This document shows, piece by piece, positions 3,613 through 4,348 of a stretch of 29,340 nucleotides of DNA (positions are counted from its first letter, which is position 1; every line of letters starts with the position of its first letter). This DNA comes from a virus. Where the stretch lies: the IMG/VR virus record IMGVR_UViG_3300028833_002847. The stretch is one strand, 5' to 3'. The notes under the pieces were generated by a model. It ran no database searches and was not told where the DNA came from. It saw nothing but the letters and a program-made list of their open reading frames with translations. Position numbers and translations under genes: made by a program.

Positions 3613-3747
3613 ATGAGTCAATTAGATGCACTTTATTCTCGTTATAATAAATTAAAAAATAATAGGCGAAATATCGAGAGTCGAGGAGTATTAAGAAAAA
3701 TTCAACGCAAAATCCGCAAATTAGAGAAAGAACAAAATAATGGATAA
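3613..3747 (+). CDS. Small basic protein (44 aa)
   Basis: ATG 3613 with a good RBS; stop TAA 3745-3747 overlaps the thyX start (ATGGATAA). Below the ORF-track length cutoff. Confidence 0.35.
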   Translation: MSQLDALYSRYNKLKNNRRNIESRGVLRKIQRKIRKLEKEQNNG

Positions 3748-4348
3748 GGTATCAATTATAGAAATTACTGAACATCCAATTGAAATTATTTCAAAAGGAG
3801 CAGGAACTAGTTATAAAAAAATTAATAATTCATGACAAAGAGTTCAGACATGTATTAAAAATGGACATTTATCTGTAACTGAATTTGCTCATATTAATTT
3901 CAAAATAGATGGAATTTCAAGAAGTTGTTTAGCACAACTTACTCGTCATCGTTTAATGTCTTTTTGTGTTGAATCTCAGCGTTATGTTAAATATAATTTT
4001 GAAGATAATAATTGATATGTAATGCCAAAAATTTTTGAAAAATCTGATGCTTGAACTCAAAGATATATTCATGAAATGAAAAATGCAGCTTTAAGTTATA
4101 GACAAGCTATAGAAGATGGCATTAGACCAGAAGATGCTAGGTTTTTCCTTCCAGAAGCTACTAAAACAAATTTAACTTGCGGAATGAATCTTAGAGAATT
4201 TTTTAACTTTCTTAATTTAAGGCTTGATCCGCACGCACAATGAGAAATTAGAGAATTAGCAGAAGAAATGTTTAATCAAGTATTAAATTATAATGATGAA
4301 TGATATACGATCTTATCCTATTGGAGAGAAACCTGTTTCGATAAATAA
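3740..4348 (+). CDS. thyX: Flavin-dependent thymidylate synthase ThyX (202 aa), containing five in-frame TGA = Trp codons
   Basis: ThyX signature RHR-X7-S ([15 protein letters not shown]). DPHAQ-W-EIRELA matches ThyX SHAQWEI, with the Trp encoded by TGA. Also [28 protein letters not shown]. Missed by the standard-code ORF track. Confidence 0.85.

Follow-up and report, generated by a model that had tools for sequence, protein, structure and literature searches.

TGA codons read as tryptophan in the thyX gene of a mosaically recoded, SPβ-like phage

The stretch of viral DNA analysed here (IMG/VR record IMGVR_UViG_3300028833_002847; 29,340 nucleotides, hereafter the window) carries a thyX gene, encoding a flavin-dependent thymidylate synthase, in which five of the six tryptophan codons are TGA. 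This raises the question whether thyX is foreign to the genome, broken, deliberately kept in this state or simply a resident gene of a phage with an altered code. The initial annotation, which was made from the sequence alone, had suggested either a separate horizontal acquisition from a code-4 source or deliberate translational gating of thymidylate synthesis. The explanation that we consider probable is a different one: thyX would be an intact, vertically inherited gene whose TGA codons arose in place in a TGA-reading phage, and its TGA-free neighbours would be the genes that are under selection. The features on which the argument rests are collected in Table 1.

Table 1. Features of the window and of its sister strains, with their tryptophan codons. 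Positions are those of the window unless a sister contig is named.
Feature	Position	Strand	TGA/TGG	Remarks
LPXTG-anchored pilin-like gene, 3' part	1..1698	+	4/3 (full length, sister strain)	GramPos_pilinBB, SpaA, Gram_pos_anchor; begins upstream of the window; TGA 529-531, 559-561
Intrinsic-terminator-like hairpin and T-run	3517..3554	+		12-bp stem, 6 GC pairs, then CTTTTTTTAT
Near-consensus sigma-70-type promoter, orf44-thyX unit	3554..3583	+		TTGTCA-18 nt-TATAAT, TG before -10; 11/12 consensus positions
orf44, small basic ORF, called as 44-aa gene	3613..3747	+		TAA stop overlaps thyX ATG (ATGGATAA)
thyX, flavin-dependent thymidylate synthase	3740..4348	+	5/1	202 aa; ATG 3740, TAA 4346-4348
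Second copy of the thyX-type promoter	4354..4383	+		For orf59 and SpoU methylase unit (TGA-free genes)
dCMP deaminase	6236..6697	+	0/1	PF00383, E=2e-13; own consensus promoter 6175-6204
SLOG/DprA-like protein	6968..7336	+	3/0	TGA at 7112, 7178, 7238
Replication core	10104..26979	+	1/60	GyrB/A-type topoisomerase, ligase, YorF, AAA_24, DnaB, primase, RecJ-like, Pol III alpha/YorL-like; TGA 19886-19888 (DnaB, 39 codons before stop)
Small thioredoxin/glutaredoxin-like protein	27384-27587	+	TGG only	Weak Pfam matches, below curated cut-offs
NrdD	27577-29340	+	0/8	PF13597, E=2.5e-66; cut by window end, 654 aa in sister strain
tRNA(UCA)	L095 11480-11575; L096 11652-11747			~6.2 kb upstream of window position 1
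Endolysin			17/7	
Tail-fibre-like proteins			8/0, 3/0, 8/2	
DGR reverse transcriptase			5/2	Neighbouring gene 3/0
Sortase			3/0	Presumed LPXTG substrate is the pilin-like protein
RuvC resolvase			3/0	

Translated with code 4, thyX matched the Pfam profile Thy1 (PF02511) nearly from end to end, with residues 6-181 on profile positions 2-185 of 191 (E=8.7e-51; 172.9 bits against a curated cut-off of 24.8), and positions 3740-4348 encode an intact ThyX only if TGA is read as Trp. The ThyX motif RHRxxSxxxxSxR was present (R69-H70-R71-L-M-S74-F-C-V-E-S79-Q-R81), and R69, R71, S74, S79, R81, R134, R152 and R161 fell on invariant columns in an alignment of 30 ThyX sequences. The in-frame TGA codons are located at 3833-3835 (W32), 4013-4015 (W92), 4052-4054 (W105), 4241-4243 (W168) and 4301-4303 (W188), and the only TGG at 4322-4324 (W195), exactly the five-to-one count initially given. 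When thyX was aligned with 29 homologues, W92, W168 and W188, all encoded by TGA, occupied invariant or near-invariant Trp columns. Because TGA falls on the conserved Trp columns of homologues, the alignment identifies it as a Trp codon in thyX. Comparison with the related strains yielded dN/dS values of 0.018, 0.11 and 0.15 at three divergence levels and no frameshifts, which marks thyX as a real and intact gene under strong purifying selection, with FAD-dependent dUMP methylation as its predicted function. With the short phage form of the ThyX/Thy1 family (~200 aa), it shares the full-length profile match, the motif and the conserved Arg, Glu and Asp columns. More than 5,000 ThyX homologues were found, many of them on contigs of 125-140 kb; what separates the present gene from this family is TGA at conserved Trp positions, which occurred only in the present lineage, its strains and one distant low-GC recoded phage (L045; 2 TGA, 0 TGG). 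In L092, thyX was split by some gene callers.

A metagenomic contig of 148,461 bp (ENA ERZ27257202, k141_6411382) contains a stretch 99.99% identical to the window, and two IMG/VR viral contigs, referred to as strain A and strain B, were 98.9% and ~95% identical to the window, respectively. The GC content of the window was measured as 28.9%, slightly above the 27% initially quoted for the genome. Context beyond the window was read from strain A (37.7 kb upstream and 10 kb downstream), so that ~77 of ~148 kb were covered in all, and within these ~77 kb no capsid, portal or terminase genes were seen. The YorL-type Pol III alpha had its closest cultured relatives in SPβ-like Bacillus phages and in large Enterococcus phages with genomes of 134-142 kb (EF1 and VRE9 series), to which it was 36-37% identical over 99% of its length. 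YorF is also shared with these phages, which infect Firmicutes; the present phage differs from them in having no nucleotide similarity to any deposited phage, as a megablast search with 24 kb of the window gave no match. Pfam matches, in part from the sister strain, revealed a GH25, CHAP and peptidoglycan-binding endolysin, a sortase and an LPXTG pilin-like protein. Since the phage encodes these three proteins, its host should have a Gram-positive wall, and the wall-less Mollicutes, which use code 4, are thereby ruled out as host. By these characters the genome belongs to a ~148-kb, 29%-GC, SPβ-like phage of a walled Firmicute. The host probably uses the standard code, as is suggested by the lysin, the sortase, the LPXTG protein and the replication genes of SPβ- and Enterococcus-phage type. 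We know of no recoding in the cultured SPβ-like and large Enterococcus phages.

Recoding was assessed gene by gene in 68 genes spanning 67 kb, which together contained 54 TGA and 189 TGG codons. The two codons were distributed extremely unevenly among the genes (chi-square 175, against a mean of 58 and a maximum of 100 in 20,000 permutations), and the 42 genes with at least three Trp codons comprised 26 with TGG only, six with TGA only and 10 with both. In several of these 10 mixed genes there is just one TGA, located among codons 1-7 of the ORF call and possibly ahead of the true start. TGA did not serve as a stop in any of 67 genes (55 TAA, 12 TAG), and the coding fraction of L084 was 0.77 under code 4 against 0.60 under code 11. 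The codon counts thus characterize a genome in which TGA is recoded to Trp as a gene-by-gene mosaic. A crude score for the gain in ORF length under code 4 did not separate tRNA-bearing loci from controls. The boundary between the classes is leaky, as some genes with only TGG in the present strain contain TGA in strain B; relative to strain B, 12 Trp codons changed from TGG to TGA and five from TGA to TGG, and five non-synonymous changes were found at Trp codons.

Within the window, thyX is not the only gene with TGA codons. The SLOG/DprA-like gene is the second strongly recoded one, the genes at 1824-2006 and 2022-2318 each have one TGA and no TGG, and the gene at 27007-27321 has one TGA at 27019-27021. 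The contrast between thyX and its neighbours that had been pointed out initially was confirmed, with 5 TGA and 1 TGG in thyX against 11 TGA and 95 TGG in the other genes of the window (Fisher p=1.8e-4).

No tRNA gene was detected inside the window. Immediately upstream of its left edge, strains A and B harbor an array of ~25 tRNAs and a ROOL RNA. Among the tRNAs are a normal tRNA-Trp(CCA) and one of 96 nt whose anticodon is UCA. Given its presence in these two strains, the latter is most likely carried by the window strain as well. The strain A copy folds into a 7/5 cloverleaf with A1-U72, G73, an encoded CCA end and a 4-bp D stem; it scored best as RF00005, and its 5' half resembled most closely the tRNA-Trp genes annotated in Bacillus phages. 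In strain B, the scaffold of the copy is Sec-like and its stems differ markedly, but it serves the same Trp positions. Identity as tRNA-Sec was rejected for the strain A copy, which has a 7/5 instead of an 8/5 geometry and a D stem of 4 instead of 6 bp, and UGA stands at Trp columns. The main determinants of bacterial tRNA-Trp are G73, the anticodon CCA and the first acceptor pair A1-U72 (PMC9976931). Both copies have G73 and N1-U72; the anticodon is UCA, so that C34-C35-A36 is lacking at its usual place, and a CCA triplet is found on the anticodon-like 7-nt loop of an extra arm. In E. coli extracts, Trp was inserted by all 13 of the 13 phage tRNA(UCA) tested (PMC12636597). Together with the codon evidence, these published assays on other phage tRNAs suggest that tRNA(UCA) is charged with Trp by the TrpRS of the host.

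To place the origin of the TGA codons, the syntenic relatives L006-L012 and L105, which carry the closest ThyX outside the strains and have a GC content of 37-45%, were compared with the present phage. The gene order orf44-thyX-(orf59)-SpoU-phosphatase-dCMP deaminase-SLOG-RlaP-gyrB-gyrA was the same in all of them. Identities were 51-54% for thyX, 51-56% for SpoU, 53-57% for the deaminase, 50-61% for SLOG and 45% for gyrB; thus the neighbours as a group (45-61%) match thyX, and synteny and matched identities indicate that thyX was inherited together with its neighbours, which is the outcome that the initial annotation had set as refuting its proposal. In the syntenic relatives thyX contains TGG only and the region gains nothing from code 4, which, given the shared inheritance, implies that the TGA codons arose in place. 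The exchanges of TGG and TGA between the present strain and strain B show this process directly. As to whether the thyX genes of related phages are equally TGA-rich, TGA was kept in the phage's own strains and was absent from the nearest non-strain homologues (50-57% identical). A foreign composition was not borne out either: the non-Trp codon usage of thyX correlated with that of the pooled TGG-class genes at r=0.93 (0.80-0.96 for genes of similar length), and its GC3 of 0.118 is typical of the genome.

These observations bear on three other accounts of the gene. The origin from a code-4 source proposed in the initial annotation, read as a cellular donor such as a Mollicute, would agree with the use of TGA for Trp and the low GC content, and one late gene has a DUF285 domain, named by Pfam after Mycoplasma; it is scarcely credible, however, as no Mollicutes were found among the 34 closest cellular ThyX loci (the best, from gut Eggerthellaceae and Bacteroidales MAG contigs, were 46-52% identical), the synteny speaks for vertical inheritance, and lysin, sortase and LPXTG protein point to a host with a cell wall. 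Alternatively, orf44 and thyX might have been gained recently as a cassette, already rich in TGA, from another TGA-recoded phage. The two genes make up a self-contained unit that has a terminator and a promoter to itself and lies between the only two copies of a promoter motif in the window, but the same site and gene order in distant relatives, identities matching those of the neighbours, typical codon usage and the lack of TGA in the nearest homologues outside the strains make such a transfer a long shot. The idea that thyX is a decaying pseudogene or that TGA encodes selenocysteine draws on the five stops under code 11, on the label 'SeC' which ARAGORN assigns to tRNA(UCA) and on the strain B tRNA, which just passes the Rfam threshold for tRNA-Sec (50 vs 47 bits). 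Its probability is practically nil: a pseudogene is ruled out by dN/dS of 0.02-0.15 without frameshifts, and selenocysteine by the location of TGA on conserved Trp columns and its interchange with TGG; in addition, TGA is found in dozens of unrelated genes, and the strain A tRNA, with its 7/5 acceptor/T geometry, had its best score as a general tRNA.

GC3 was lower in TGA-class genes (0.096 vs 0.153, p=7e-5), consistent with weaker constraint. In the two-fold A/G pairs (Lys, Glu, Gln, Leu-TTR and Arg-AGR), 85% of the codons genome-wide end in A, which is the neutral expectation for the TGA share if TGA and TGG were equivalent; the share in thyX is 83% and thus equals this expectation. Read most simply, thyX tolerates TGA and is not enriched for it, and the TGA-class genes are at mutational equilibrium, from which the TGG-only genes (0% TGA) would be held away by selection. 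It is therefore the TGG-only neighbours that appear as the constrained genes. According to the rationale given by Borges et al. (bioRxiv 10.1101/2021.08.26.457843), the recoded codon has to be absent from genes that are required ahead of the code switch, and a nearly TGA-free replication core would fit this rationale. The rule that a TGG-only gene must be early is not strict, because strain B carries TGA in some of these genes.

The course of events that we propose starts with a lineage that already possessed a UGA-reading tRNA. Under strong AT pressure, TGG to TGA transitions would have accumulated in thyX, which would belong to a tolerant class together with the endolysin, the tail fibres, the DGR reverse transcriptase, the sortase/pilin pair, RuvC and SLOG. 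The neighbours, comprising the replication core and many housekeeping-type genes, would be kept free of TGA by selection, presumably since they must be translated by the unmodified host machinery. Production of full-length ThyX would require the phage tRNA(UCA) to be available and to have received Trp from the host TrpRS. As the first of the five TGA codons is already codon 32, no useful ThyX would be expected without efficient decoding of UGA.

Next to translation, the transcription of thyX was considered. The terminator-like hairpin ends the upstream unit just ahead of the thyX promoter, and the extended motif TTGTCAAT-N16-TATAATATWATAAAA was found in the window only at 3554 and 4354 (0 expected by chance). 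The intergenic gaps contain four near-consensus sigma-70-type promoters with 18-nt spacers, at 3554 (orf44-thyX), 4354 (SpoU), 6175 (deaminase) and 10043 (gyrB). Judged by its promoter, which is of the same host type as those of the TGA-free neighbours, transcription does not set thyX apart, and because this promoter type is shared, transcription does not account for the membership of thyX in the TGA-tolerant class. Any delay in the production of ThyX would have to be translational. Upstream of thyX, orf44 was also present in related phages (54-61% identical in L006-L008, L103 and L105; 77% in L102), and the overlap of its stop with the thyX start suggests translational coupling.

A delay of this kind is the core of the second initial proposal, in which selection keeps TGA in thyX and thymidylate synthesis waits for the suppressor tRNA. 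If true, such a gate would uncouple ThyX production from an early-type promoter. The near all-or-none use of the two codons per gene, the consensus promoter shared with TGA-free neighbours, the common class of functionally linked genes such as sortase and pilin, and the TGA codons in thyX of the low-GC recoded phage L045 are all in line with it, and Borges et al. (10.1101/2021.08.26.457843) propose exactly such a role for recoded codons. All six Trp codons of thyX, and with them all five TGA, were unchanged in all strains up to and including L102 (84% aa identity). However, this conservation did not exceed the neutral expectation (P ~0.6 and 0.3 at per-codon switch rates of 10-20%, as derived from the observed switches), and switching between TGG and TGA is frequent elsewhere in the genome. 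The TGA share of thyX is that expected without selection, and the pathway partners are mostly not gated (dCMP deaminase 0 TGA/1 TGG, NrdD 0/8, dUTPase 1/1). Gating is thus compatible with the published model, of which it would be a legitimate but unproven special case; as thyX is not singled out by its codons, we regard it as rather unlikely, and tolerance of TGA in thyX is preferred.

The surrounding nucleotide metabolism genes had been described as a complete route from dCTP via dUMP to dTMP. The dCMP deaminase, NrdD and the redoxin, the latter by weak Pfam matches, were indeed found where they had been placed, and a dUTPase gene is located 3 kb beyond the window in the sister strain. The substrate of dCMP deaminase is dCMP, not dCTP, and no genes for a dCTPase, a thymidylate kinase or NrdG were seen in the ~77 kb covered, which include the window and the 10 kb downstream, so that completeness of the route was overstated. 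The genes for ThyX, dCMP deaminase and NrdD belong to separate transcription units with unrelated genes between them.

A comparable arrangement has been reported for the Agate clade, TGA-recoded gut phages of ~127-154 kb from cattle and pigs, whose replication machinery uses the standard code, whereas several modules of structural and lysis genes are recoded, as described by Borges et al. (10.1101/2021.08.26.457843). Measured against that description, the present phage is similar in its large size (~148 kb), low GC, use of TGA for Trp, phage tRNA(UCA) and lack of TGA stops, in its animal-gut source (an origin from the rumen is suspected) and its close relatives with standard code, and in combining standard-code replication machinery with recoded lysis and structural genes in modules spread over the genome. 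It differs from the described pattern in that recoded thyX, SLOG and RuvC are embedded singly in its replication and nucleotide-metabolism arm and in that the sortase/pilin pair is recoded. An intron endonuclease and a tail protein are among the TGA-preferring families named in the accessible text, which makes no mention of thyX (10.1101/2021.08.26.457843). The present phage thus matches the published Agate-type pattern, the resemblance being one of size, source, GC and recoding pattern only, and thyX adds a further case to the TGA-recoded phages, which are already known.

In code 4 of the Mollicutes, UGA is read as Trp. The present phage resembles this system in the meaning of UGA and in an AT-driven preference for TGA. 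It differs in that a virus of a walled host employs TGA in some genes and not in others, that TGG is still in the majority (189 vs 54) and that UGA is decoded by a phage tRNA which has an extra arm.

In both strain copies of tRNA(UCA), this extra arm is a stem of 5-6 bp in the position of the variable arm, closed by the 7-nt loop GUCCAAA. For comparison, the anticodon loop of tRNA-Trp is CUCCAAA and the UGA-reading loop is CUUCAAA. A search of IMG/VR with both loops specified retrieved 21 stretches, all of them tRNA-like, with 14 distinct extra-arm stems. In a second, less biased search, only the UCA anticodon stem-loop, a gap of 20-40 nt and the T-loop were specified, and 81 stretches with 63 unique intervening sequences were obtained. 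About 40 of these tRNAs have an extra-arm hairpin with the loop CUCCAAA (12-13), GUCCAAA (11-16) or a close variant. Beneath the extra loop, the five stacked pairs were formed in 82-100% of cases, with 4-6 pair types per position, against 24-63% in shifted registers, and the class with the CCA loop had G73 in 39 of 41 and U72 in 37 of 41 members, neither position being constrained by the search. In the other class, 22 of 25 members had the 8-bp-acceptor register of tRNA-Sec (a one-base shift) and short extra loops. These searches delineate a real and widespread class of phage tRNA(UCA) with a Trp-type acceptor end and a copy of the Trp anticodon loop on the extra arm.

With opal-suppressor tRNAs, the tRNA-Trp(UCA) of Mycoplasma and tRNA-Sec, this class shares the UCA anticodon and G73, and with tRNA-Sec the long extra arm. 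It differs from all three in that most members have the 7/5 geometry with N1-U72, which is Trp-like and not Sec-like, and in that the 7-nt loop at the end of the extra arm, N-U-C-C-A-A-A, equals the anticodon loop of tRNA-Trp or comes very close to it. No earlier description of an anticodon-like extra arm was found in a search of the running text of openly accessible articles. We tentatively propose, as one possible interpretation of these sequences, that the second arm is a decoy identity element for charging by the host TrpRS. The real stem-loop would read UGA, and the extra-arm loop (C/G)UCCAAA would supply the CCA identity which the UCA anticodon lacks; TrpRS would otherwise recognise this anticodon poorly. 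The TGA-rich genes, namely thyX, the endolysin, the tail fibres, sortase and pilin, RuvC and SLOG, could then constitute a regulon that depends on tRNA(UCA) and is spread over single genes in an otherwise standard-code genome.

For thyX, the outcome is that a gene seemingly foreign or defective when read with the standard code is a normal resident of a recoded phage genome, and that an annotation with code 11 would lose it. The most interesting material lies outside the thyX coordinates, namely the gene classes, which are nearly all-or-none, and the suppressor tRNA with its two loops. Since genes are nearly all-TGA or all-TGG, the phage offers a clean view of recoding at the level of the gene, and which genes have to be translated ahead of the code switch becomes readable from the sequence. 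If the proposed role of the extra arm is true, it would bear on how phages hijack the synthetases of their hosts and on the design of orthogonal UGA-decoding tRNAs.

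The tRNA(UCA) on which the TGA-written tryptophan codons of the focal phage presumably depend was found in both sister contigs, strain A (L095) and strain B (L096). It carries a second, anticodon-like stem-loop at the position of the variable arm, and the sequence of this loop, (C/G)UCCAAA, matches the anticodon loop of tRNA-Trp. About 40 distinct phage examples of this two-loop family were located in loci L138-L226; their stems covary and the acceptor end is of the Trp type (G73, U72). A second class of phage tRNA(UCA), which is of the Sec type, is without the CCA loop. No description of the anticodon-like extra arm was found in the literature searched. 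The tRNA array and its ROOL RNA are flanked by tail-fibre genes and the pilin-like gene. The related viral contig IMGVR_UViG_3300028832_000101 (L190, 136 kb) has, all inside 9 kb (3625-11987), over 25 tRNAs, a ROOL RNA, a tmRNA and a partial match to OLE RNA (124 bits) that is interrupted by the end of the locus.

Recoding of thyX has probably occurred more than once, because the distant ThyX of another low-GC phage (L045 10001-10432; IMGVR_UViG_3300025362_000004, 123 kb, GC 32%; 44% identical) is encoded with two TGA and no TGG codons at a locus with numerous in-frame TGA. Unlike L045, locus L038 (GC 28%) contains zero in-frame TGA. The small basic orf44 upstream of thyX is kept throughout the phage clade (54-77% identity) and may encode a partner or regulator of ThyX. 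In addition, the two promoters flanking thyX share the extended motif TTGTCAAT-N16-TATAATATWATAAAA, of which the window holds no other copy.

Coordinates of features in the window, in flanking loci (L084, L098, L230), in strains A (L095) and B (L096) and in the relative L103
Feature	Location	Remarks
tRNA(UCA)	L095 11480-11575; L096 11652-11747	~6.2 kb upstream of the window start
tRNA array	L084 1-6100	~25 genes; directly upstream of window
ROOL RNA	L084 3481-4128	298 bits; embedded in tRNA array
orf44	window 3613-3747	44 aa; stop overlaps thyX start (ATGGATAA)
Sigma-70-type promoters (n=4)	window 3554, 4354, 6175, 10043	near-consensus; intergenic gaps; every spacer 18 nt
SLOG/DprA-like (YspA-type) gene	window 6968-7336	3/3 Trp codons TGA
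Endolysin (GH25+CHAP+PG-binding)	L230 15028-16599	minus strand; ~6 kb past window right end
Diversity-generating retroelement	L095 435-4246	textbook layout
Variable repeat	L095 2570-2672	103 nt; 3' end of 759-aa tail-fibre-like gene
Template repeat	L095 2862-2964	
Reverse transcriptase gene of retroelement	L095 3167-4246	5 TGA/2 TGG
RNA-repair-type genes	L098 5378-6829; strain A composite -33431..-32442 (vs window position 1); window 7980-8768; L103 16267-17764	
Sole TGA of replication core	window 19886-19888	39 codons upstream of DnaB stop
Sortase (PF04203), phage-encoded	L098 2015-2818	
LPXTG-anchored pilin-like protein (GramPos_pilinBB, SpaA)	window 1-1698	~25 kb from sortase

The heaviest recoding among the genes seen was that of the endolysin (17 TGA/7 TGG), which sits where the coding strand switches. 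The all-TGA tryptophan codons of the SLOG/DprA-like gene are kept in strains A and B, while one TGG is present in L102; orthologues in TGG-coded relatives share 50-61% identity. In the retroelement, all 16 mismatches between the variable and the template repeat fall at template adenines. The phage group further has a cluster of RNA-repair-type genes (TROVE/Ro-like, RNA ligase and RlaP, with RtcB, split into two gene calls, in L103), and those of the focal phage are TGG-coded throughout.

Without suppression, DnaB would terminate at its single TGA and be 479 aa long (code-11 ORF list); with suppression, it reaches the primase gene, as the DnaB stop lies at 20005 and the primase ATG at 20007. 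The two DnaB isoforms might differ between stages of infection. The genes for the sortase and the pilin-like LPXTG protein, presumed to be its substrate, are both TGA-coded, and therefore enzyme and presumed substrate fall in one suppressor-dependent class.
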